Source: Mobula hypostoma (taxonomy: Eukaryota). From it: a stretch of 64,000 nt of DNA. Under the pieces are notes generated by a model. It ran no database searches. It was not told the origin of the DNA and saw only the letters and a list, made by a program, of their open reading frames with translations. Shown piece after piece: positions 8,421-49,099 of the stretch (the stretch's first letter is position 1; each line of letters begins with the position of its first letter). The stretch lies in NCBI RefSeq assembly GCF_963921235.1, contig NC_086097.1, forward strand, positions 8,184,001 through 8,248,000, written 5' to 3'. The position numbers and the translations under genes are program-made.

Positions 8421-11077
8421 ACCTCTTCTCACCAGCCCCTTTATCTTCCCAACCTGGCTTCAACTATCACCTTCTAGTTATCCTCCTACCCCTCCCCACA
8501 TCTTCCCACTTCTTCCCAGCTGTGAGGAAGCCTCTCAGCCCAAAATGTCAGAAGTCCATTTATTTCCATGGATGCTGCCTGACCTGTTGAATTCCTCCAG
8601 CATTTTGTATGAGTTACAGTATTGACTTGTTCATAATTATGCAACCTCAGAATAAAAACTAAACAACTGAAGTAAAAAAGTTAATATTTTATCTTTCCTT
8701 AATTATAAAATGGATTATTTTAAAAAGAGCATTGTTTGGTTCCTGACTGTTTAGAAACTGTCTAGACAGAACATCTGTATTTTAGTTAGAGTGCAACCAA
8801 GTTCTCAACCACTCAGCTGTCATGGTTTCTGGAAAAAAAATCCCAGGTTGTAAAATAACAGCTGCAGCCATTTGTCAACTAAAGTAACTCCTGTTACAGC
8901 TTACAGTTCATGAAAGGAATGCTTGCCAACTGTCAGTTCCATCAAGTCTCTTGATGGCTGGCAGCAACATTTTCCGGTAATTAGTTTTTAATTAAAAAAA
9001 AGCCCAGATGTATAAAGCAGATATTTTATTTGACAATTTAGGCTTCCCTCAAACACAATTTATAGGTGATGAATCTCACAATTTCCTGAATTACGTTCAG
9101 CAAGTCAGTGTGTTATCTGCTCAGAGGTTGGATGGGCCGCGGTGTGACTTGCCCTCTGACTCTGAAATATCTTTCCATCGTTTTCACCCACAAATCATAG
9201 ACGGAATACTCTTAACTAACCTGCATGAGTGCAGATCGAACAGATAACGTGATTATAATCTCAGAGATTCTGCAATTGCGAAACATTTGAGTCAACGCAC
9301 ACAAAATACTGGAGAAATTCACTGGGTCAGGAAGCATAGAACCATAGAACACTTCAACACAGAAAACAGGCCATTCGGCCCTTCTAGTCTGTGCCGAAAC
9401 ATTATTCCACTAGTCCTGTTGACCTGCATCCAGTCCATAACCCTCCAGACCTCTCCTATCCATGTACTTATCTAATTTATTTTTAAAACTTAAGAGTGAG
9501 CCCGCATTCACCATGTCAGATGGCAGCTCGTTCCACACTGCCATCACTCTCTGAGTGAAGAAGTTCCCCCTAATGTTCCCTCTAAACCTCTCCTCTTTCA
9601 CCCTAAAGCCATGTCCTCTCGTATTTATCTCTCCTATCTAAGTGGAAAGAGCCCATTCACATTTACTCTGTCTATACCCCTCATAATTTTGTAAACCTCT
9701 TATCAAATCTCCCCTCATTCTTCTACGCTCCAAGGAATAAAGTTCTAACCTGTTCAATCTTTCCCTGTAACTTAACTCCTAGTAAATCTCTGCACTCTTT
9801 CAATCTTACTGATATCCTTCCTATAGTTAGGTGACCAGAACTGTACACAATACTCCAAATTTGGCCTCACCAATGTCATATACAACCTCCCCATAACATC
9901 CCAACTCCTATACTCAATACTTTGATTTATGAATGCCAGGATGCCAAAAGCCTTCTTTACAACCCTGTCTACCTGTGACGCCACTTTCAGGGAATTATGT
10001 ATCTGAACTGCCAGATCTATTTGCTCCTCTGCACTCCTCACTGCCCTACCATTTACTGTGTATGTCCTACCTTGATTTGTCCTTCCAAAATGCAGCACCT
10101 CACACTTGTCTGTAAAAAATTCCATCTGCCATTTTCTGGCCCATTTTTCCAGTTGGTCCAGATCCCTTGCAAGCTTTGAAAGCCTTCCTTGCTGTCCACA
10201 ACGCCTCTAATCTTAGTGTCATCAGCAAACTTGCTGATACAATTTACCACATTATTATATAGATCATTGATATAGCCAACAAACAACGGGCCCAGCACAG
10301 ATCCTTGAGGCACACCATTAGTGACAGGCCTCCGGTCTGAGAAGCAATTATCCACTACCACTCTCTGTCTTCTCCCACACAGCCAATTTCAAATCCAGTT
10401 TACAATCTCTCCATGGATACCTAGTGTCTGAACCTTCTGAACTAACCTTCCATGTGGTACCTTGACAAAGGACTTACTAAAGTCCATGTAGAGAACATCC
10501 ACAGCCTTTCCTATAGCTACTTTCTTGGTAACCTCCTCGAAAAACTCTACAAGATTCGTTAAGCATGATCTATCACACACAAAGCCATGCTGACTATCCT
10601 TAATCACCCCTTGGCTGTCCAAGTACTTGTATACCCGACCTCTCAGAACACCTTCCAATAATTTACCTACTACTGATGTCAGGCTTACTGGCCTGTAATT
10701 ACCTGGTTTACTTTTGGAGCCTTTTTTAAACAACGGAACAGCATGAGGTACCCTCCAATCCTTTGGCACCATACCCGTGGCCAAGGACATTTTAAATATT
10801 TCTGTCAGGGCCCCTGCAATTTCTACACTAGTCTCTCTCAAGGTCCGAGGAAATATCATGTCAGGCCCAGGGAATTTATCCACCTTTATTCGCTGTAAGA
10901 CAGCAAGCACCTCCTCCTCTTTAATCTCTATATGTTCCATGACACTACTGCTTGTTTCTCTTCCTTCCATATACGCTATGCCAGTTTCCTGAGTAAATGC
11001 TGATGCAAAAAAATTGTTTAAGATCTCCCACATCTCGTGAGGCTCCACACATAGATGACCACTTTGATCTTCTAGGG

Positions 11078-28590: not shown

Positions 28591-30049
28591 TTCTATCATG
28601 GTTCTTGGATTTTCTGAGTAATTATCTCAGGATTGTATATGTCGACACATATGTACTCAGATAAAAATTTACTTTGAACTTTGTAATCAGATGTGGGATG
28701 CCAATAGCAGACCCTCAAAATAAACACACCATTTTACCGATAAATCACCATCAGCTGAGAGTGTCTGACCAGTTCTCAGTCTCTCCTCCGTTGGTACTTG
28801 GCAGGAGAGAGATTGACAAGGGTGTCTTTGACATCGTTTGGAGGATATTATTGTCTAATTTCCCAACAGTGACATTAACTACAGATGTTATTCCATGCCT
28901 CAGCCAGCCTTTCTTCTGACGATTACCCTTGTTCCTTTGTGGAACTCTTGTAGCTTTGTTAAGTCAGGGAACTTAATAATTTGCATGCAAGTTTACATAG
29001 GTCAATAAAAATGCTTCAGTGCAAACTATCAAATCCCATTTTGACTTTATAAAACATAAAAGATCCCAGGATGAAAATTAATCCTTCAATATAATCCTGT
29101 GAGCTTGTTATGCCCTTAGTCACTGCTTCACAGACTGTAACTTTGCTCTGACCGCGGAAATTCTTTTTTGATGACAGAAAATCATGTTAGCAAAGAATAT
29201 TCTAAACATTATATCTTCGTAAAGCTTGATGTTTTGACAACATTATTGTGTAGTGTCATGGTCTGCATGTATTCACATGGGGAAGGAATACTTTTCTAAT
29301 AAAAACACATTTCAAAAAAGAAAACAAGCAGTAAGCTATTTTTTCTCGTAACCGTGTCTATGATTCCAGCTGCAGTATAAGAATAACGTGTGTCACCCTG
29401 ATGTAACTTGTAGACTGTATCATTAGAAAGGAAATACTGTATTTGGTTGGGTAGCAGAGTGGAGATACATCTCTACCGAAGGAGGCATAAGGCGCTTCTT
29501 CCCTCTGCTAGCCTGTGGTCTCCCTTGGCCAAGTTGTAGCACTTGCTTAACTCCCCCCCCCAACCAATCAGGGTCACGTGAAGCTGTGGGAGCATGTGGT
29601 GGATGGTTATATGAGCAGCTGGTGCACATCACAAGTCCTGGTTATGCAACCACTAATGTCAGGCAGACAATCTCTGAAGAGCAAAGACACTGCCCAGAAG
29701 AAGGCAATGGCAAACCACATCTGCAGAAAAAGTTGGCAAGAACAATCACATAACAGGGCACAGAATGTATGAATGGTATATGGAGTGATAGGGTGGGAGA
29801 TAATTATCAAAAGGTACTCCTGATTGTTTACAGTGAAGTTATTCTCCTTTGCACAATTAAACACTTTTTCTACAAAAAGTGGTGGATTTTAGCCCAGTCC
29901 TTCACAAGAAAAGCCCTCCTTACCATTGAGCACATCTAAAATGAGTGCTGCCACAAGAAAGCAGCATCCAACATCATGGTCCCCACTACCAAGTCCATAC
30001 TCTCTTGTCACTGCTTCCCACATCACTGGGTTAGAAGCAGTTGTTACCC

Positions 30050-30294
30050 TTCAACCATTAGGCCCCTGAACCAGCGTGGATAACTTCAACCATCAGGCCC
30101 CTGAACCAGCGTGGATAACTTCAACCATCAGGCCCCTGAACCAGCGTGGATAACTTCAACCATCAGGCCCCTGAACCAGCGTGGATAACTTCAACCATCA
30201 GGCCCCTGAACCAGCGTGGATAACTTCAACCATCAGGCCCCTGAACCAGCGTGGATAACTTCAACCATCAGGCCCCTGAACCAGCATGGATAAC
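30050..30294 (+). repeat. Minisatellite, 7 x 35 bp (TTCAACCATCAGGCCCCTGAACCAGCGTGGATAAC)
   Basis: Seven head-to-tail, near-identical units; the unit equals the ORF-end segment of the surrounding Rex1/Babar fragment. Confidence 0.95.
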
Positions 30295-30364
30295 TTTACT
30301 CACTTCAACACTGGACTGATTACTGAAGGCAACTCACTTTCAAGGACTCGATGATTATTTTTAA

Positions 30365-33205: not shown

Positions 33206-34914
33206 GTATGTAATTATTGATGTAGTGTGGTAGTGTTCATGGGTTTATTGTCCATTCAGAAATCTGATGGTGGACGGGAAGAAGCTCTTCCAGAATCGTT
33301 GAGTGTGTGCCTTCAGTCCTCTGTACCTCCTCCCTGATGGTAGCAATGAGAACAGGGCATCACCTGGGTGATGGATGCCAACTTTTTGAGGTATCTCTCG
33401 TTGAAAATACCCTGGATGCTGGGGAGGTTCGTGCCTGAGTTTGCAACTCTCTGCAGGTTATTTTGATCCTGTGCAGTGGCTTCCCACCCACCGCCACCCC
33501 CACCGTCCCCCACACCGCCCCATACCAGCTGGCAATGCAGCCAGTTGGAATGCTTTCCATGGTGCATCTGTAGAAATTTGCAAGTGTCTTTGGATCTTCA
33601 AGGCTGAAAGAGAGGTAGTTTTCATACCGAAACTGATTACAAAGCACTCAGTAACCTAATACAGTTGCTTGAGTTTTGTGGTTTCAAGTTCAATGATCAA
33701 TAATAAAACAATTTAATTAAAATAAGCATCCAATCTCACAGATGTGCTAGCACCTCCTCTGTGCAAACCAACAAGAACCACAGAAAGTCACACCCATCTA
33801 CCTTCCAACTCAGTGGAATTACTGGAAAATAGGGATAGGGATCCCATGGGACAATACAAGGAAGGGGTGGGATGTCCATTCTGATTTCCTGACCAAGTGT
33901 AAATCAACACATTGGAATTCATCCTTGTGATAAATGTGTCCATGTTCTAAGAGGTGAACATTGCAAACATCCTCTGAAATTCTCTTCTACTGACATCAGT
34001 GGAATTAAATTTAGAAACTGAGTGCATTGTACAGCCACTAGTATGTTGTATGAAAAACACAGGTACTCAGGGTAAATTCATAAGCAACAGTCTGGCCATT
34101 TATTCTACTTTTTGGATACAATAGGGTCTTTTAAGAGACTCTTAGATAGATACATGGAGCTTAGAAAAATAGAGGGCTATGTGGTAGGAAAATTCTAGGC
34201 AGCTTCTCGAATAGGTTACATGGTTGGCACAACATTGTGGGCCAAACAGTCTGTAATGTCTTGTAGATTTTCTTTGTTCTATGTTCTATGTTTGTGGGAT
34301 TTTGTTATGTACAATTATGCTTTTTTTGTGGGATCTGCATTATAAACAAGGCCAGTGTTTCTAAATGTTCCTGGACTGAGTGGCACATAATAACTCAACC
34401 GTATATGGATTCATAGACTGGGAGGTGATTAAATTAAAAGGTACTCCTGATAGTCGTCAGTGAAGGTATTCTGTTTTACACAATTTTCTACGATGTTAAC
34501 CCAGTCCATTACAGGGAAAGCTCTCCTTATCATTGAGTACATCTACAAGGAGTTCTGCCACGTGAAAGTGGGACCCCCACATTCCAGGCCATGCTCTCTT
34601 CACATTGCTACCATCAGGAAAGATGTACAGTAGTCCAAGGTCTCACATCATCAGGTTCAGGGATCGTTATTACCCTACAACCATCAAGCTCCTGAAGTGA
34701 ATGACTTCACTCACCTCAATACTGAACTGATCACTGAATGCATAATCATTTACAAGGACTCTATAACTGAAAGGCTTGCTGGGGCCATTAAAATCAACAC
34801 TATTGCTGTCATAGAGCATGCAAGCTGATCCTTCAGTCTAACTCATTCATGCCAGACAAGATGCCTACCTGAAACGTTCACACCGGCCTGTGTTTGACTT
34901 GTATCCTTCTAATC

Positions 34915-37270: not shown

Positions 37271-37648
37271 TAGTTTTGCCAACCATCTGGAAGATATTGC
37301 CCTTAGTCAAGTTGTTTTCTGCCGCAATCTTCTGGAATCATATTGCTTTGTATTTTATTTGTGGCAATATTTTGTTTTATGTGCTGCATGTGATATATGT
37401 TGTGTGGCTGCATGCTGGTACAGAAGAATGTTGTTTTGTTGTGTATATATACAGTCATATGACAGTAAAATGGAACTAGAACTTGAGATGAAATTTGTAC
37501 CTTCTCCATGCCGATTGTTGTAAATCTCCACTGTTTTCAGTGGCTAAGGATTGAATAAGGGGAATAGGTTGCCAGGAAAATGGAACCGGTGAGAATGTTT
37601 TGTGCTAACAGGAAGTCTGACAAAAATGAGTTAAATTGGCAACGTTAG

Positions 37649-37878
37649 TGAAGCACCTTCAATTACTCCAAAAGACTGAGGTTTGGTAAAAATACTGAAA
37701 GGCTTTTATTCGCTGTACAATACGACCTCCACAGTGAGTGTCTGCCCCCGGACTGAGGGGGAGGGGCAAGGCGAACACCTTTATACAGGACTCTGTGGGA
37801 GGAGCCACAGGAGCAGTCAGCAGAGGTGTGTGTCCAGACAGGTAACCAAGTTACAACGTATATACATGGTTTACCACA
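37649..37878 (-). repeat. 3' LTR
   Basis: Direct repeat of 41952-42181 (9 substitutions counted by eye); preceded on the minus strand by PPT AAAAAAAGGAGGGGTGAA. Confidence 0.97.
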
Positions 37879-37947
37879 TTCACCCCTCCTTTTTTTAAAA
37901 AGAGTCCCGCGGGATGAAGTGACTGACAATATTTACAAGAAGTATAT

Positions 37948-40425
37948 TTACAGTTTAAGTCTATCAGGCGGTCGAGTCCGTCGCTGTGATCTACGTAGCA
38001 CCGGCGATGGAGGTTGTGCTGGCTCCGGCCTGACTTCAGGTGCCAGCACGTTAGGCGTCGGTAATCCCTCGTGCGTGTGCATCGCGCCCGGTATGGGAGT
38101 GTCGTGTGGTGTCTGTATAGGGTTTGGGGTGCACGGTGTCTCGTAGGTACATACATTGGTGGGTACGGGGTCAATAGTCACCACGGAGTGTTCAGGGTAG
38201 GGGCCAGGAGCTCCTGCGGGCGCCAGGTCGAGGCTGGAGACCGTGTCCTCCCGCCCATCAGGTAAAACCACTTAGGCATACTGGGGGTTCGCATGAAGTA
38301 AGTGAACCCTCTCGACTATCAGGGAGTATTTATGGCTCCTCGCATGTTTCCGGAGCAGCACTGGCCCCGGGGACGTCAGCCAAGATGGTAGGGTGGTTCC
38401 AGTGGTCAATTTTCTGGGAAAAGAAAAGAGCCGCTCATGAGGGGTGGCATTGGTGGCTGTGCATAACAGGGAGCGGATGGAGTGGAGTGCCTTGGGAAGT
38501 ACCTCCTGCCAGCGGGAGACCGGCAGTCCCTTTGACGTGAGGGCTAAGAGTGTGGCTTTCCACACTGTGCCATTCTCCTTCTCTACCTGTCCATTCCCCC
38601 GGGGATTATAGCTCGTGGTCCTACTGGTTGCAATTCCCCTAGCCAGTAGATATTGGCGCAGCTCGTCACTCATAAACGAGGACCCTCTGTCACTGTGGAT
38701 ATAGCATGGGTATCTGAACAGAGTGAAGAGCTTGCGCAGGGCTTTTATAACTGACGTGGTAGTGGTGTCCGGGCAGGGGATGGCGAAGGGGAACCGCGAG
38801 TACTCATCAATTACGTTAAGAAAGTACACATTGCGGTCGGTGGAGGGAAGGGGGCCCTTAAAGTCAACACTCAGTCGCTCAAAGGGGCGGGTGGCCTTGA
38901 TGAGTGGTGCCTTTTCGGGTCGGTAGAAGTGCAGTTTGCACTCTGCGCAGACTTGGCAGTCCCTGGTCATCGTCCTGATCTCTTCAAGGGAGTAAGGCAG
39001 GTTCCGGGCTTTCACGAAATGGAAAAGCCGGGTGACTCCCGGGTGGCAAAGGTCTACATGTAGGGCGTATAGCCAGTCGATCTGCGCGCTGGTGCATGTT
39101 CCCCGGGATAGGGCATCGGAGGGCTCGTTGAGCTTCCCAGGCCTGTACATGATGTCATAGTTGTAGGTGGAGAGTTCGATTCTCCACCTCAGAATTTTAT
39201 CATTTTTGATTTTGCTCCACTGCTGATTATTAAACATGAATGCGACTGAGCGCTGGTCAGTTAGCAGGGTGAACCTTTTGCCGGCAAGATAGTGCCTCCA
39301 GTGCCTTATAGCTTCCACTATGGCCTGGGCCTCTTTCTCTACCGCAGAGTGCCGAATTTCAGGGCCTTGAAGTGTACGGGAGAAGAACGCCACTGGTCTT
39401 CCTGCCTGGTTGAGGGTAGCAGCCAGCGCAAAGTCGGAGGCGTCACTCTCTACCTGGAAGGGAATGGCCTCATCCACCGCATGCATTGTTGCTTTGGCAA
39501 TGTCCCCTTTTATGCGGTTGAAGGCCGTGTGGGCCTCGGAAGAGAGGGGGAATGTGGTGGACTTGACCAGGGGGCGGGCCTTGTCTGCATAGTTAGAGAC
39601 CCATTGGGCATAATATGAAAAGAAGCCCAGGCACCTTTTGAGGGCTCTGAGGGTATTGGGAAGAGGGAGTTCCAACACGGGGCGCATACGGTCGGGGTCA
39701 GGGCCAATGACTCCATTCTCCATGACACACCCAAGAATAGCAAGTCGGGTGGTCCCAAATACACACTTGCCCTTGTTATAGGTGAGGTTGAAAGATTTGG
39801 CTGCTTGGAGAAATTTTTGGAGTTTGTTGTCGTGATCCTGTTGGTCGTGACCACAGATGGTGATGTTATCCAGATATGGGAACGTGGCCTTCAGTTGGCA
39901 CTGGTCCACCATCTGGTCCATTGCCCTCTGGAAGACAGATACACCATTCGTGACACCAAAGGGGACGCGCAGGAATTGATAAAGCCTGCTGTCCGCCTCA
40001 AAAGCAGTGTAAGGGCAGTCCTCCCGGTGGATGGGGAGCTGATGGTAAGCGGATTTTAGGTCTATGGTCGAGTACACCTTGTACTGTGCTATCTGATTGA
40101 CCATAACCGCAATGCGGGGTAGAGGGTACGCGTCGAGCTGCGCGACCCTATTGATGGTCTGGCTATAGTCCACCACCATCCTATTCTTCTCCCCGTTCCG
40201 AACAACCACCACCTGCGCCCTCCAAGGACTTGTGCTTGCCTCAATGACCCCCTCCCTGAGCAGCCGCTGCACCTCCGACTTAATGAAGGCTCTGTCCCCC
40301 GTGCTGTACCTCCTGCTTTTAGTTGCCACAGGTTTACAGTCGGGGGTCAGGTTGGCGAACAGCGGTGGGGGAGGGATCCTGAGGGTGGAGAGGTGGAGTG
40401 GTGTTGGTAGTGTGGCAGTTGGCAT
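37948..40425 (-). pseudogene. pol: pol (RT, RNase H, integrase) with an in-frame stop at 38272-38274
   Basis: RT IDLKSAYHQ, PFG, YLDN; RNase H ESDASD, EKEA, TDQ; integrase HHCC and D,D35E (VDFKGP, SDRG, VEK); same frame continues after TAA to RRSQRRTRPPDRL. Confidence 0.92.
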
Positions 40426-41925
40426 GATGTTGGGTGGGATGCGCAGGTCGGTGTGTGTGTGTGGTCAGTAGCGGGGTACGTGACATATCTCTACAAAACA
40501 GGGGATTTATGACAGTAATTGGCGGGTGGGGCCCATCATACTTCATTGTCACGCTTTTCAGGTGGCTCTGGAAGTCAAACCCCAACAGCACAGGGGCACA
40601 CAGTTGAGGCAAGACCAGTAACTTAAAGTCCCGATATTCTGTGCCTTGCACCACTAGCATCGCTACACAACCCCGCCGGATGTCTGTTGTATGCGACCCG
40701 GAGGCCATGGTGACCCTCCGACTTACCGGCCGTATCATGAGTCCACAAGGCTGCACCGTGGCCAGGCGGATAAAACTCTCCATGCTGCCTGTGTCAAACA
40801 GGCAGCTTGTCCTGTGCCCCTCCACCAGGATGTCCATCATTGACCTTGCGAGCTGGTGGGGAGCGCTTTGGTCGAGGGTCACAGAAGCCAGGGTGGGGTC
40901 GCTGTCTTGGTCCGGTGTGGTGAGGTGCCCCGTGAGCACCCGTTGGTCGTAGGCGGTGGGAGGTGGTGCCGACCAAGATGGCCGCCCCCATGTCTCGCAC
41001 GTGGTGGTGGCGTGCAGGGAAGATGGCGGCAGGCAAGATGGCGACCCCCACGTCTCGCACGTGGTGGCAGTGTGCAGGGAAGATGGCGGCAGGCAAGATG
41101 GCGGCCCCCATGTCTCAAACGTGGTGGCAGTGTGCAGGAAAGATGGCGACCCCCACGTCTCGCACGCGGCGCTGCTCGATCCCGCTCGCGGTTTTGACTT
41201 ACAGACCTTGGCGAAGTGGCCCTTCTTTCCGCAGCTGGAACAGGTAGCTTGTCGGGCCGTGCAGCGTTTCTGGGGGTGCTTCTCCAGTCCGCAGAAGTAG
41301 CACTTCTCGGACTCATGACTAGCTGCAGCCGAGGTCGATTCGCCGGCAGGTTGCGGGGTCTGCGGCGCCACGAGTCCATCAGGGGATCGCGTGCCTGGAG
41401 AGCCTCGGAGTTATGCAGAGCGGCCTCCAACGTATCAGCCAGCTCGATCGCCGAACTTAGGGTAAGATTGGCTTTTTCCAGCAGCCACTGGCGCACGTAC
41501 ACTGACCTGGTCCCCGTAACGAAGGCGTCTCTCACTAGGAGTTCTTCATGCTGCGCCGCCGTCAGCTCCTGGCAATTGCAGGCCCACACGAGTGTCTGTA
41601 GGGCCCGGACAAACTCAGCACTCGATTCCCCGGACCGTTGTTGCCGTGTCGCTAAGCGATGCCGAGCATAGATTCTGTTTATCGGCCACAGGTATTGTCT
41701 TTTGAGTGCGTTCATCGCGCCGTCGTAGTTCGGCTGGTCTCTGATCAGCGAATAGACCCGTGGACTGACCCTGGAGAGTAGAACTCTGTGCTTCGCTACG
41801 GGGTCGGTCGCTTTAATCTCCTCTAGATACGCTTCGAAGCAGGCCAGCCAGAGTTCGAAAGCGTTTCCAGCGTCAGGCATTTGCGGATGGAGGTCTAATT
41901 TTTCTGGTCTCAGGACCTGTTCCAT
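40334..41925 (-). pseudogene. gag: gag + zinc knuckles + aspartic protease, frameshifted near 41371
   Basis: MEQVLRPEKL... capsid-like region; CYFCGLEKH....C and CSSCGKKGHFAKVC knuckles; protease LFDTGS. Confidence 0.9.
40975..41165 (-). repeat. In-frame 60-bp tandem repeat (~3 units) between NC and protease
   Basis: Encodes repeated (T)CETWGSPSCLPPSSLHTAT units. Confidence 0.9.
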
Positions 41926-41951
41926 GTTTTAAAATGTACAGCGAATAAAAT

Positions 41952-42181
41952 TGAAGCACCTTCAATTACTCCAAAAGACTGAGGTTTGGTAAAAATACTG
42001 AAAGGCTTTTATTCGCTGTACAATACGACCTCCACAGTGAGTATCTGCCCCCGGACTGAGGGGGAGGGGCAAGACGAACATCTTTATACAGGATTCTGTG
42101 GGAGGAGCCACAGGGGCAGTCAGCAGAGGGGTGAGTCCAGACAGGTAACCGAGTTACAACATATATACATGGTTTACCACA
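41952..42181 (-). promoter_or_regulatory. 5' LTR with TATAAA (42083-42088) and AATAAA (42008-42013)
   Basis: Motifs read directly on the minus strand; function inferred from LTR position. Confidence 0.85.
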
Positions 42182-44549
42182 GTTAGTGATGACTGTTTTG
42201 GATTATACCTAATTGGATTTAAGATCCTCTGATGTTGTAGGGTGATTTAAATCAGGCAGTTGTCCAAGCCACCAGATTACTAGTCTTGTAGCATAGTGAC
42301 TAAATTTTAACAGCAACTGCATTTTAAAAACACATTGAAATGTTCTCCAGCCAAGAAAGACATTTTGTAAATGATTTTTCTTTGCTTCTCTTTGATCAAA
42401 GTGAAATCATTGTACAAGGCAAAGCAGCCACGGATCACACAAAAAAAGACCGTCTTTTAAAACTTCATTTATAAAATGATGTTGTCCCAAAATATGGGTC
42501 AGAATCTTTCTGAAATAATACAGTTTTTTTTTAACCAGTCTTTCCAAATGATGGTGGGGAAATGGCTATTTTCTATAGCTGAAAACATATTAGCAAATTG
42601 GTTTGAACACTGTATGTGTACATTCAGTGGCCACTGTAAAATTGATCGGAGTTCAATCCCCACACTTTCTCTAAGGAGTTTGTACATCTTCACGTCACCG
42701 TGTGGGTTTCCTCTGGGTGCTCTGGTTTCCTCCCACATTCTAAAAGTCATAGGTTAATTGGTCACATGGGTATAATGGGGCTGGAAGGGCCTGGTTTCAT
42801 GCTATTGCCTCTAACGATAATGGTGGTGTATAAGGTACTCCAGCATCTGAGGTTATAGATTAGGTGGTGTATTGTTCGAGTTGAGTATGATTGTCCATTG
42901 GTGGGTCCTCAGATGAACACTCAGTCGCCACTGTAAAATTGATTGGAGCTCTATCCCCACCACTGTTTGTTCTCCCTGTGACCACCTGTGTTTCCTCCCA
43001 CATTCTAAAATTCATACGGGTCGGGGTTGGTAGGTTGTGGACATGCAATATTGGCACCAGAAACTTGGCATCACTTGTGGACTGTCCCCAGCATAATCCT
43101 TGGATGGTGTTAGATGTTGATTCAAACGGTGCATTTCACCATATGCTTTGATGCACAAACGAAAAATAAAACTAATCTTATCTTAATCCTTTGGAGCTGA
43201 GGCAAATAGTAAAACTCCAGTTCAGATAGCCACTCATACCCACAAGAACAGATGAACAAGTGCATGTCACTTCCCACACCTTCAACATGATCACGGTTGA
43301 TCTACCCCATTCCTTAGCTCTCCTTCTGTGACAGTTTATAAGAGCCTTTGATTCTCTGAAGTTTCAAAAATGGACCTTCTACTGCACCTCAGTAGGTCAA
43401 ATGCAACGAGACAATATGCTGTTAAAGGCCTGATCCTTTATTTGTTTAAAACTTCTTTGTGCAGCTCCTGTTACTGCACACTCTCAATAAATCTGCCATT
43501 CACAGTATACAGTTTTCAAAGTGAGGAAGTAAAGAATTTCATAGCAAAGATTTATGTAAAAGTTTGATCATTTGTTCCAAATTGGAGAGGGTTGAGGGTA
43601 AAATTATACAAGTGGTAAAAGTTCAACGAAAACACTATCTGTTTATTGAAACTCGATCATTTGTCTGAGGTATTCCAGGACTAAAATCATGGATAACAAG
43701 TAGTTACAGACTTCTGCATTGATTGAATATCAGATGGAATAAAGAAAACTATCCAAAGCTTTACTTTGTTCTAAACTGTTTATGCTATGTCTGACGTTAT
43801 TTAATCCTTTCTTTCTTCCAGTCATTCGTAACGCGGTTTTTGTGACAATTTTTTCTCTAAATTAAACAAAGCATTCAGTTAATGATTTATTTGCAATAAT
43901 ACCAAAAAATGGTTGTAAACAGTAGAGAGAAAAAAATAATTAAGTAACTGATATATCTGTCTTGAGTCAGAAGGTGGGAGGGGTCTTGGCAAGGAAACTA
44001 TTATGACATAAGATCCATTTGAGCTTCTGACTAGAAATATACCTGACGTCAGATATTGCCTGCCAAGCAGTACAATCTCTGTTAATAGAACAATGCTTGA
44101 AGGAACATCTTTGATCATTTTGTTTTGATATTGAAGGTGGAAGGGAAACAAAAATATCAAGACACTCCATCTTTTGGTTCAATGTATTCTGAGCCATTTC
44201 GACCATATAGTAATGTTTTTTCCTGTACATAACTCCCACCAGCACCTTTTTACCCTTGCAGTTCAGATTCAGAATCAGAATCAGGTTTAATATCACCAGC
44301 ATATATTGTGAAACTTGTTGTCTTTGCAATACATAATTACAAAGAATATAGTGTATATACATAGAGTTAACTTAAATAAGTAATGCAAAAATAGAAATAA
44401 AAAAGTAGTGAGGTACTGTTATTGGGTTCAATGACCATTCAAAAATCAGATGGCGGAGGGAAAGAAGCTGTTTCTGAATCGTTGAGTGTGTGCCTTCAGG
44501 TCCCTGTACCTCCTTCAGGATGGTAGTGATGAGAAGAGGGCATGTCCTG

Positions 44550-47123
44550 CAGGGTGGAAGTCAGGAACAGGAAGGGAGCAGTTACTACATTGGGAGTATT
44601 CTATAGGCCCCCTGGTAGCAGCAAAGATACTGAGGAGCAGATTGCGAGGCAGATTTTGGAAAGGTACAAAAATAACAGGGTTGTTATCATGGGTAACTTT
44701 AACTTCCCTAATATTGATTGGCATCTGATTAGTTCCAAGGGTCTGGACGGGGCGGAGTTTTGTTAAGTGTGTCCAGGATGGATTCCTGTCACAGTATGTC
44801 GACAGGCCGACTAGGGGGAATGCCATACTAGATCCAGTATTAGGTAACGAACCGGGTCAGGTCACAGATGTCTCAGTGGGTGAGCATCTGGGGGACAGTG
44901 ACCACCGCTCCCTGGCCTTTAGCATTATCATTGGAAAAGGATAGAATCAGTGAGGACAGGAAAATGTTTAATTGGGGAAGGGCAAATTATGAGGCTATAA
45001 GGCTAGAACTTGCGGATGTGAATTGGGATGATATTTTTGCAGAGAAATGTACCATGGACATGTGGTAGATGTTTAGGGATCTCTTGCAGGATGTTAGGGA
45101 TAAATTTGTCCCGGTGAGGAAGATAAAGAATGGCAGGGTGAAAGAACCATGGGAGACAAGAGAGGTGGAAAATCTAGTCAGGTGGAAGAAGGCAGCATAC
45201 ATGAGGTTTAGGAAGCAAGAATCAGATGTGTCTATTGAGGAATATAGGGTAGCAAGAAAGGAGCTTAAGAAAGGGTTGAGAAGAGCAAGAAGGGGGCATG
45301 AGAAGGCCTTGGTGAGCAGGGTAAAGGAAAAGCCCAAGGCATTCTTCAATTATGTGAACAAAAAAAGGATGACAGGAGTGAAGGTAGGATCAATTAGATA
45401 TCAAGGTGGGAAGATGTGCCTGGAGACTGTGGAAGTGAGCGAGGTCGTCAATGAATACTTCTCTTCAGTATTCACCAATGAGAGGGAACTTGATGATGGT
45501 GAGGACAATATGAGTGAGGTTGATGTTCTGGAGCATGTTGATATTAAGGGAGAGGAGGTGTTGGAGTTGTTAAAATACATTAGGACGGATAAGTCCCCGG
45601 GGCCTGACGGAATATTCCCCAGTCTGCTCCACGAGCCGAGGGACGAGATTGCTGAACCTCTGGCTAGGATCTTTATGTCCTCGTTGTCTACGGGAATGGT
45701 ACCAGAGGATTGGAGGGAGGTAAATGTTGTCCCCAGTTCAAAAAAGGTAGTAGGGATAGTCCGGGTAATTACAGACCAGTGAGCCTTATGTCTGTGGTGG
45801 GAAAGCTGTTGGAAAAGATTCTTAGAGATAGGATCTCTGGTCATTTAGAGAATCATGGTCTGATCAGGGACAGTCAGCATGGCTTTGTGAGGGGCAGATC
45901 GTGTCTAACAAGCCTGATAGAGTTCTTTGAGGAGGTGACTAGGCATATAGATGAGGATAGTGCAGTGGATGTGATCTATATGGATTTTGGTAAGGCATTT
46001 GACAAGGTTCCACACGGTAGGCTTATTCAGAAAGTCAGAAGGCATGGGATCCATGGAAGTTTGGCCAGGTGGATTCAGAATTGGCTTGCCTGCAGAACGC
46101 AGAGGGTCATGGTAGAGGGAGTACATTCAGATTGGAGGATTGTGACTAGTGGTGTCCCACAAGGATCTGTTCTGGGACCTCTACTTTTCGTGATTTTTAT
46201 TAACGACCTGGATGTAGGGGTAGAAGGGTGGGTTGGCAAGTGTGCTGATGACACAAAGGTTGGTGGTGTTGTAGATAGTGTAGAGGCTTGTCAAAGGTTG
46301 CAGAGAGACATTGATAGGATGCAGAAGTGGGCTGAGAAGTGGCAGATGGAGTTCAACCCGGAGAAGTGTGAGGTGATACACTTTGGAAGGACAAACTCCA
46401 AGGCAGAGTACAAAGTAAATGGCAGGATACTTGGTAGTGTGGAGGAGCAGAGGGATCTCGGGATACATGTCCACATATCCCTGAAAGTTGCCTCACAGGT
46501 AGATAGGGTAGTTAAGAAAGCTTATGGGGTGTTAGGTTTCATAAGTCGAGGGATAGCGTTTAAGAGTCGCAATGTAATGATGCAGGTTTATAAAATTCTG
46601 GTTAGGCCACACTTTGGTGTACTGAGTCCAGTTCTGGTTGCCTCTATAGGAAGGATGTGGATGCATTGGAAAGGGAACAGAGGAGATTTACCAGGATGCT
46701 GCCTGGTTTAGAGAGTATGGATTATGATCAGAGATTAAGGGAGCTAGGGCTTTACTCTTTGGAGAGAAGGAGGATGAGAGGAGACATGATAGAGGTGTAC
46801 AAGATAATAAGAGGAATAGATAGAGTGGATAACCAGCGCCTCTTCCCCAGGGCACCACTGCTCAATACAAGAGGACATGGCTTTAAGGTAAGGGGTGGGA
46901 AGTTCAAGGGGGATATTAGAGGAAGGTATTTTACTCAGAGAGTGGTTGCTGCATGGAATGCACTGCCTGAGTCAGTGGTGGATACAATAGTGAAATTTAA
47001 GAGACTACTGGACAGGTATATGGAGGAATTTATGGTGGGGTGTTATATGGGAGGCAGGGTTTGATGGTCAGCACAACATTGTGGGCCAAAGGGCCTGTGC
47101 TGTGCTGTACTATTCAATGTTTT
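44550..47123 (+). mobile_element. Young CR1 LINE (same subfamily as 26081-28273) nested in a minus-strand Rex1/Babar fragment
   Basis: ORFs 44542..44766 (GVFYRPP, MGNFN), 45069..45782, 45710..46711 and 46657..47064; nearly identical to the 26-28 kb copy. Confidence 0.95.
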
Positions 47124-48321: not shown

Positions 48322-49099
48322 ATACTTCGATAATAAAATGAACTTCTGAACTCTCTGCAGCTTATTTTAATCCTGTGCTGTAGCCCTGCCCTCTCATACC
48401 AGATGGTAATGCAACCAGCTTGAATGCTGTCCATGGTACATTTGTAGAAACTTTTGTGTGTTTTCGGTGACATTGGAAATCTCTTCCAACTCCTAATGAA
48501 ATATAGTCGCTGTCTTGCCTTCTTTGTAGTTTCTGTATAGTTTCTTAACTCTACCTCTGTCTAGTGGACTTCTGGATTGGATGCAGTGATGCCTGACTTG
48601 GTGACAGGTTTGCTCATCTCTGTGCTGGACTTGGGCTGTGGCTTGCAACCAGTGAACTTCTGGATTGGGTACAGTGATGCCTGGCTTTGTGAACTACGGT
48701 TCTGAATGCTGTTTTCTTGCTTTTATTCTTTGCACAAATGCTTTTTTTTCCCTCTCTCTGCACATTGGGTGTTTTACAGTCCCTTTTTAATGGATCCTAT
48801 TGGGTTTCTTTGTTTAGCGACTGCCTGTAAGGAAATGAATCTCAGGGTTTTATAAAGTATAGATACTTTGATAATAAATGTACTTTGAATTTTGAACTTT
48901 GCAAATTGGCTGAGTCTAATGTAACACCTCAGTTGCTTTCATTTTGCATTAGATAGACAAATGGATGTGAGCACCTCAGCCCCAATTTCAGCATGACTGC
49001 TGGATGTCCTTCGCTGAAGCCGCTCTTCATCTAATATGAAAACTTCAATGTCTTTTTGTGAACTCAATTTTTCTACAATTCCTGTTTAGTTACTAAAAT

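Follow-up and report, generated by a model that had tools for sequence, protein, structure and literature searches.

A leader hairpin in a Ty3/gypsy retrotransposon of Mobula hypostoma and in its relatives suggests self-primed reverse transcription outside the chromoviruses

A Ty3/gypsy element and its 5′ leader hairpin

The DNA analyzed here, hereafter the window, is a 64,000-nucleotide stretch of Mobula hypostoma contig NC_086097.1 (positions 8,184,001 to 8,248,000). Its minus strand carries a Ty3/gypsy LTR retrotransposon of 4,533 bp (window 42181..37649) with the coding order gag-PR-RT-RH-IN, and all features of the element described below lie on that strand. The 5′ LTR (41952..42181) is 230 nt long, runs from TGTGG to GCTTCA with TG...CA ends, and is repeated directly, at 96% identity, by a 3′ LTR of 230 nt (37649..37878). 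When both LTRs were aligned together with their flanks, a 5-bp target-site duplication, CTAAC, was found (upstream copy 42182..42186, downstream copy 37644-37648), and a polypurine tract, AAAAAAAGGAGGGGTGAA (37879..37896), abuts the 3′ LTR. The edges of the LTR are also marked by contigs of four sequencing runs from other organisms, which end at 41952 and 42181 and thereby point to many insertion sites and to multiple copies in several organisms. No second copy of the element was found within the 64-kb window.

Comparison by tblastn with the full-length relatives P0014 and P0002, together with the list of open reading frames (ORFs), placed the N-terminal part of gag at 41401..41925. The C-terminal part of gag and the protease occupy 40511..41308, in a frame that differs from those of both neighbors, as identified by tblastn and Pfam (PF13975, PF13650, and PF00098); according to Pfam, this segment contains two CCHC zinc knuckles in its gag part (about 41198-41245) and, in the same frame, an aspartic protease (about 40571-40834). 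The Pol ORF (37951..40392), delimited with Pfam, tblastn, and the ORF list, encodes a reverse transcriptase (RT) with the motif YLDN (about 39727-40182; PF00078), an RNase H (about 39163-39540; PF17917/PF17919), an integrase core (about 38602-38892; PF00665), and a C-terminal tail. The reading frame changes at two places (about 41401 to 41308 and about 40511 to 40392), and an in-frame stop interrupts the Pol ORF at 38272-38274. Set against full-length relatives with a single ORF, the broken frames and the stop indicated that this copy is old and dead.

The best solved relatives are Ty3 Gag-Pol (E value of 3.7e-57) and Ty3 RT (E value of 1.1e-48). An RT nearest to the Ty3 type, LTRs with TG...CA ends, a target-site duplication, a polypurine tract, and the order PR-RT-RH-IN place the element in Ty3/gypsy (Metaviridae). 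The best protein matches were obtained in Mobula hypostoma itself (94%), Hypanus sabinus (81-86%), and Scyliorhinus canicula (79%), and farther ones in a sea anemone and Trichuris muris (about 60%), plus many further assemblies. Pfam detected no chromodomain in the Pol ORF, the integrase C-terminal tail (37948-38271) matched no Pfam family, and the precomputed domains placed PF00385 (chromodomain) in none of the best 120 homologues listed. An earlier sequence-only reading of this locus had described the element as free of a chromodomain, and this description held.

The catalytic motif of the RT reads YLDN, not YxDD (FPYLDNITICG, in ORF 40464..38272, window region 39860-39880). Among the 120 best homologues listed (P0001-P0120), Y[LMIV]DN is present in 86, xxDD in 27, and neither in 7, and a full-text search of the literature found no report that pairs the YLDN motif with a reverse transcriptase. 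The spacer between gag and the protease holds a 60-nt tandem repeat (40974-41148; 2.9 copies with 90% matches by Tandem Repeats Finder), which encodes a repeated peptide block. Elsewhere in the window, a tandem array with a 35-nt spacing (30014-30331) consists of seven overlapping 108-nt copies that are up to 99% alike. The element is flanked on both sides by a 159-nt direct repeat (33222-33380 and 44405-44563; 80% alike, 11.2 kb apart), which may represent two copies of another repeat family.

Inspection of the region that follows the 5′ LTR revealed no TGG-type primer-binding site (PBS). Instead, a single A (41951) separates the LTR from TTTTATTCGCTGTACA (41935..41950), a putative PBS that is the exact complement of TGTACAGCGAATAAAA (42007..42022), a segment of the LTR itself and a candidate self-primer whose putative 3′ end is its last A, at 42007. 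The two arms enclose a loop of 56 nt (41951..42006; the rest of R plus U5), which starts with GCC, ends with CAA, and is predicted to fold further through two inner stems, GCCUUUCAG.. with ..UUGAAGG.UGC and CCAAA with UUUGG. The LTR arm holds the hexamer AATAAA at 42013-42008, the sole AATAAA of the LTR, and the gag ATG (41925-41923) lies 9 nt beyond the end of the PBS arm. The lack of a tRNA-type PBS, the exact 16-nt complementarity at a distance of 1 nt from the LTR end, the AATAAA inside the pairing segment, and the further folding of the loop had all been noted in the sequence-only reading; each was found again in our analysis, the inner stems in the predicted fold of 42027-41930.

That 98-nt segment folds with a predicted energy of −32.1 kcal/mol, versus −13.9 ± 3.0 kcal/mol for 200 shuffled sequences (z = −6.1), none of which folded as well. 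An exact complement of a 16-mer among the about 215 positions of a 230-nt LTR is expected by chance with a probability on the order of 5e-8 by simple arithmetic. When the whole window was searched with the 16-mer of the arm, three exact matches and two with three mismatches were recovered, where shuffled sequences gave a mean of 0.52 at up to three mismatches. The 5′ LTR contains TGTACAGCGAATAAAA itself at 42022-42007, and the 3′ LTR contains it at 37719-37704. The two three-mismatch matches (10884-10899 and 48721-48736) are not copies of the LTR. Rfam placed no family in the window at the gathering score and none in the hairpin region at E values up to 1. ARAGORN called a 91-nt tRNA-Gly(CCC) at 39103-39193 on the plus strand; this call is probably spurious, as it lies on the opposite strand inside the RT frame and corresponds to no Rfam tRNA.

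The pairing among relatives

Relatives were taken as the DNA around Pol matches in metagenome contigs. A metagenome scan with protein alignment A2 yielded 80 loci at 46-66% Pol identity; a metagenome scan with a single protein query had returned nothing, and a scan of viral_contigs returned no relative. The loci were then scanned, without regard to any LTR, for exact stems of at least 11 bp that enclose 25-90 nt of loop; the region searched was the 1,600 nt that span 700-2,300 nt upstream of the RT match. Such a stem was present at the homologous place in 37 of the 56 loci with enough upstream sequence to be evaluated, and its 5′ arm has a TAAA-like end in 36 of these 37, the other one being L062. 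The same scan on 1,600 nt of RT-coding sequence found one stem in 62 loci. Together with the fold shuffles and the 16-mer search, this control led us to reject a chance origin of the pairing. Five more stems of 11-12 bp were detected elsewhere in the upstream regions, and weaker stems were seen in L073 (14 bp with one G-U pair) and L055 (9 bp). No stem of at least 11 bp was found in 19 of the 56 loci, and most of those inspected are 5′ truncated or decayed.

An independent view was obtained from 31 elements, the one in the window included, whose LTR edges were set by LTR pairs irrespective of any pairing. An exact complement of 13-19 nt to the element's own LTR was found in 18 of them, starting between −6 and +1 nt of the computed LTR end, and the partner segment ends 35-56 nt short of the end of the LTR. 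With the boundary defined in this way, the 3′ arm starts 0-1 nt past the LTR. The 13 elements without such a match comprise three decayed members of stem families (9-11 nt), four with 7-nt matches only, and six with none; several of the 13 are contigs whose repeat runs out at the contig end. In none of the relative lineages inspected does a TGG-type PBS follow the LTR. In a quick Pol tree restricted to this clade, stem-bearing elements fall on either side of the midpoint root. Copies with a tRNA-type PBS, or copies devoid of the complementarity, had been named in the sequence-only reading as evidence that would speak against it; what we observed is that the relatives keep the pairing with other, co-varying sequences, and at the level of sequence the pairing is a clade-wide trait.

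Copies of the element in other organisms, represented by contigs of the four sequencing runs, carry changes in the arms at 41935 (G-U kept) and, left unpaired, at 41940, 41942, 42015, and 42019; position 41942 belongs to a CpG. One contig that spans the PBS and most of the LTR arm contains one mismatch and one G-U pair. The unpaired changes fit the decay of dead copies and say nothing for or against compensation.

Altogether, 25 different arm sequences were recognized, namely a set of 23 lineages plus L062 and L073. For the 23 distinct arms, 296 of 299 cells pair at positions 1-13 counted from the loop. When partners were swapped among lineages in 2,000 trials, on average 216 and at most 237 of the 299 cells paired, and sliding the partner by 1-3 nt left 73-141 paired. 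In a MAFFT alignment of the 23 hairpins (A3), changes on both sides of the stem were found at 14 of 17 stem pairs; the double-change cells numbered 77, versus 21.0 ± 3.6 after shuffling, and none of 500 shuffles reached the observed value. In A3, 91.4% of the cells were paired, versus 32-47% with the partner slid by 1-3 columns. Since the rows were picked for having a stem, the percentage paired is partly built in, but the diversity of pair types is not; the rows of L028 and L043 are misaligned in the 3′ arm and count against the structure. Single compensated changes also distinguish close lineages (L015/L011, L002/L004, and L078/L079). The core stems contain Watson-Crick pairs only, with G-U pairs confined to outer extensions, in a scan that favored exact stems. 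The compensatory covariation between PBS and LTR that the sequence-only reading had proposed to look for in relatives is therefore present.

These data bear on the idea that the PBS binds a host RNA, either an internal tRNA fragment, as in the half-tRNA priming of copia, or another small RNA. PBSs of the half-tRNA kind do occur in Ty1/copia lineages, according to PMC6317226. A primer shared by all hosts would, however, keep the PBS from changing and place no constraint on the LTR, and we found 25 different PBS sequences, each matching its own LTR; a shared host tRNA as primer was rejected on this ground. In the window, moreover, no tRNA reaches the Rfam gathering score, and the lone ARAGORN call is the one opposite the RT frame described above. 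We regard priming by a host RNA as highly improbable. The poly(A) tail was considered as a primer as well and was rejected, because the PBS begins with only 3-4 U and is preceded by CAA, so that the 3′ end of a tail could not stay paired.

Beyond the pairing itself, the leaders of the clade share a common anatomy. The LTR ends with CA and is followed by one A as a spacer and then by the 3′ arm, whose first letters are TTTA in 23 of the 25 lineages. The 5′ arm ends with TAAA in 23 of 25, and RCC comes next in 23 of 25, where it often opens a small stem-loop (RCCUA...UAGGY). A stem of at least 4 bp that starts at the first nucleotide of the loop was found in 18 of 25 lineages, versus 12.5 expected from shuffled loops, which is suggestive only. 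Arms are 11-19 nt and loops 31-87 nt long across the clade, and the gag AUG is located 0-46 nt past the stem.

Many leaders are extremely short (L005, L008, L015, L059, L060, and others), with a gag ATG that overlaps the PBS arm or lies 0-5 nt farther on, and in many relatives the LTRs measure 150-220 nt and the whole element no more than about 4.0-4.2 kb. L062 carries a hairpin at the same place (L062:1276-1361) with 15 exact base pairs, GCCU after the 5′ arm, and CAA before the 3′ arm, and its 5′ arm ends with GAAGA, not UAAA. A short TTACCT(G) block is common to the otherwise unalignable LTRs of L005, L008, L015, and the window's element (42140-42150); the block precedes the arm by 15-45 nt in the compact relatives and, in the longer LTR of the window, by about 125 nt.

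An identical arm is present in the 3′ LTR (37704-37719), and sequence alone cannot tell which of the two copies pairs with the PBS. The PBS could thus pair mainly with the copy in the 3′ R, in the same or a co-packaged RNA, as an aid to strand transfer or as a means of priming in trans. Against this stand the cis partner, just 56 nt away, which would form its duplex first, and the conserved RCC stem-loop after the 5′ arm, which suggests a local structure. We consider such pairing quite unlikely to be the main one, and with respect to priming, it would be a variant of self-priming by the LTR arm, not an alternative to it.

Priming, the poly(A) signal, and competing readings

The element and its relatives display the feature of the self-primed class: a tRNA-type PBS is lacking, and the putative PBS, placed against the 5′ LTR, is the complement of an LTR segment farther upstream in the same RNA. 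That segment of the element's own LTR is the only conserved partner of the PBS. The edge of an LTR is where minus-strand synthesis starts, and because that start sets the edge, a duplex whose 3′ arm lies 0-1 nt past it occupies the place expected of a primer on its PBS. We consider Tf1-like self-primed reverse transcription in a non-chromoviral Ty3/gypsy lineage to be the probable explanation of these findings. As far as sequence comparison goes, the self-priming interpretation of the sequence-only reading is supported, and the conservation across lineages suggests that the whole group primes its own copying.

By analogy with Tf1, the LTR arm (42022-42007) would pair with the PBS (41950-41935) in the genomic RNA and close the 56-nt loop, and the RNase H of the element would cut the RNA just 3′ of the arm, after ...UAAA and before RCC. 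The freed 3′-OH would then be extended over the spacer A and the loop, yielding minus-strand strong-stop DNA, which would move to the 3′ R by way of the short segment that separates the arm from the poly(A) site. The PBS would be re-copied from the primer in each cycle, and from such re-copying it would follow that the complementarity stays perfect, with a Watson-Crick core, while the sequence drifts. The polypurine tracts of the clade end with ...AA before TG, a context similar to that of UAAA before RCC, and it is possible that one RNase H preference underlies both the end of the polypurine tract and the UAAA|RCC site.

AATAAA or ATTAAA is present at the 3′ end of the arm in 15 of the 25 lineages, among them that of the window; another three have a canonical hexamer in the loop, and in the other seven the region contains no such hexamer. 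In the 15 lineages with the overlap, the 5′ poly(A) signal would in addition be concealed by the duplex, and the 3′ copy of the signal, having no partner, would stay active. The sequence-only reading had offered the hairpin as a primer, as a mask of the poly(A) signal, or as both. The co-varying PBS that abuts the LTR argues for the primer; masking cannot be the universal role because 10 of the 25 lineages lack AATAAA/ATTAAA in the arm, and it is plausible as an additional role where the overlap exists.

HIV-1 is said to occlude its own 5′ poly(A) signal with a hairpin. A hairpin of purely regulatory or structural function, which hides the 5′ poly(A) signal, gates gag translation, or serves packaging and leaves priming to some other, unrecognized primer, would agree with the hexamer located exactly at the end of the arm in 15 of the 25 lineages, with the strength of the stem (−32 kcal/mol), and with the gag AUG close behind it. 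We nevertheless judge it unlikely, since the stem is kept in the 10 lineages without a hexamer in the arm (three with a hexamer in the loop; the arm of L062 ends with GAAGA), and since a masking stem need not begin exactly 0-1 nt past the LTR edge. In addition, no alternative TGG-type PBS follows the LTR in any lineage inspected, and a core composed only of Watson-Crick pairs fits copying better than selection on structure alone, with the qualification that detection favored exact stems. Masking of the signal would account neither for the occurrence of the stem throughout the clade nor for its constant position.

The start of the RNA has been predicted from motifs only. From a TATAAA (42083..42088) and an Inr-like TCAGTCC, whose A is position 42057, transcription would begin 35 nt before the LTR arm, in line with the sequence-only reading. 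Among 20 lineages, promoter motifs show no consistent distance to the arm, and TATA-like motifs lie about 30 nt before the arm in L001 and L063. A primer with an unpaired 5′ tail of 35 nt would form a flap at plus-strand transfer, which implies that the start prediction is wrong, that a second cut is needed, or that the mechanism differs from that of Tf1. In our view, a transcript that begins at the arm, or a second cut, would make for a simpler mechanism than an internal primer with an unpaired tail.

A more far-reaching proposal can be put forward tentatively, as one that we think more apt to fail than to hold in full. In this proposal, a clade of compact Ty3/gypsy elements from animals and environmental eukaryotes dropped tRNA priming independently of Tf1/sushi, with a primer cut from inside R that ends at the element's own poly(A) hexamer. 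A single duplex of 13-19 bp would then perform three jobs: creation of the primer by an RNase H cut after UAAA (in a context like that of ...AA|TG at the polypurine tract), silencing of the 5′ poly(A) signal, and reduction of the working R to the stretch from the hexamer to the poly(A) site. The mostly YxDN RT of the clade would hint at an unusual active-site chemistry, possibly co-evolved with this mode of initiation.

If self-priming is confirmed, the clade would constitute a second, non-chromoviral group of self-priming Ty3/gypsy elements, distributed in vertebrates and many invertebrates, and freedom from tRNA primers would have emerged, or been retained, more widely than has been assumed. 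It would also bear on the idea, discussed in PMC3601003, that hairpin priming preceded tRNA priming, and the clade would evade host defenses directed at tRNA-type PBSs, such as the targeting by 3′-tRFs described in PMC7472051. Annotation pipelines for LTR elements will mis-score or overlook the clade if they require a tRNA PBS. The way in which primer and poly(A) signal overlap provides a compact model of how a single LTR sequence can act differently at either end of an RNA.

Comparison with known systems

Self-priming by an LTR segment that loops back to the region just after the LTR is established for Tf1, has been proposed for Tj1, and is implicated in further chromoviruses (PMC4600332, PMC5006619, and PMC3601003); it has also been predicted in plants for Tcn1-clade chromoviruses and for the TAR lineage of Ty1/copia, which includes Houba and Osr-1 (PMC6317226). 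In the literature examined, experimental demonstration of self-priming is confined to the Tf1 type of fission yeast. Our full-text search found no published self-priming in a non-chromoviral Ty3/gypsy lineage of animals, and older key papers outside the reach of that search may hold priority.

Like Tf1 and Tf2 of Schizosaccharomyces pombe, Tj1 of S. japonicus, and the Tf1/sushi group, the clade has no tRNA-type PBS and a region after the LTR that is complementary to an upstream segment of its own LTR, and in the Tf1/sushi group a cleavage is required to free the primer, as we infer here (PMC4600332, PMC5006619, and PMC3601003). Unlike the Tf1/sushi chromoviruses, the element and its relatives lack a chromodomain, the hallmark of that group. 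Their hosts are animals, e.g., rays, sharks, a sea anemone, and a whipworm, in contrast to the S. pombe and S. japonicus of Tf1 and Tj1. The self-primer of Tf1 is 11 nt long, compared with arms of 11-19 nt in the clade. The arm of the clade, unlike that of Tf1, ends with UAAA, usually as part of the poly(A) hexamer, and is followed by RCC, and in the window, motifs predict that the RNA begins 35 nt before the arm and not with the first base of the arm. A report by Lin and Levin from 1998 is said to describe that Tf1 needs a stem-loop like the U5-IR.

The plant Tcn1 and TAR self-primers resemble the clade in that self-priming was inferred from PBS-LTR complementarity across whole lineages (PMC6317226). 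They differ in that they belong to another superfamily or to a chromovirus branch and reside in plant hosts, and an overlap with the poly(A) signal goes unmentioned in the passages of that paper examined.

In other respects the clade is like the Mag lineage (Mag, Steamer, the mosquito Mag families, and Jule), whose elements are compact (4.5-5 kb), have LTRs of 145-300 nt and a 5-bp target-site duplication, and lack a chromodomain (Table 1 of PMC3286476; PMC8905726). The end motifs of Mag LTRs (TGT... and ...AYAACA), as given in Table 3 of PMC3601003, resemble those of the clade relatives. In contrast to the clade, the described Mag elements of Culex carry a tRNA PBS for Leu, Ser, or Arg (PMC3286476), and Steamer carries a tRNA-Leu PBS, TGGTGTCAGAAG (PMC8905726). 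The clade thus resembles Mag in element size, in LTR length, and in its LTR ends, and differs from it in the type of PBS.
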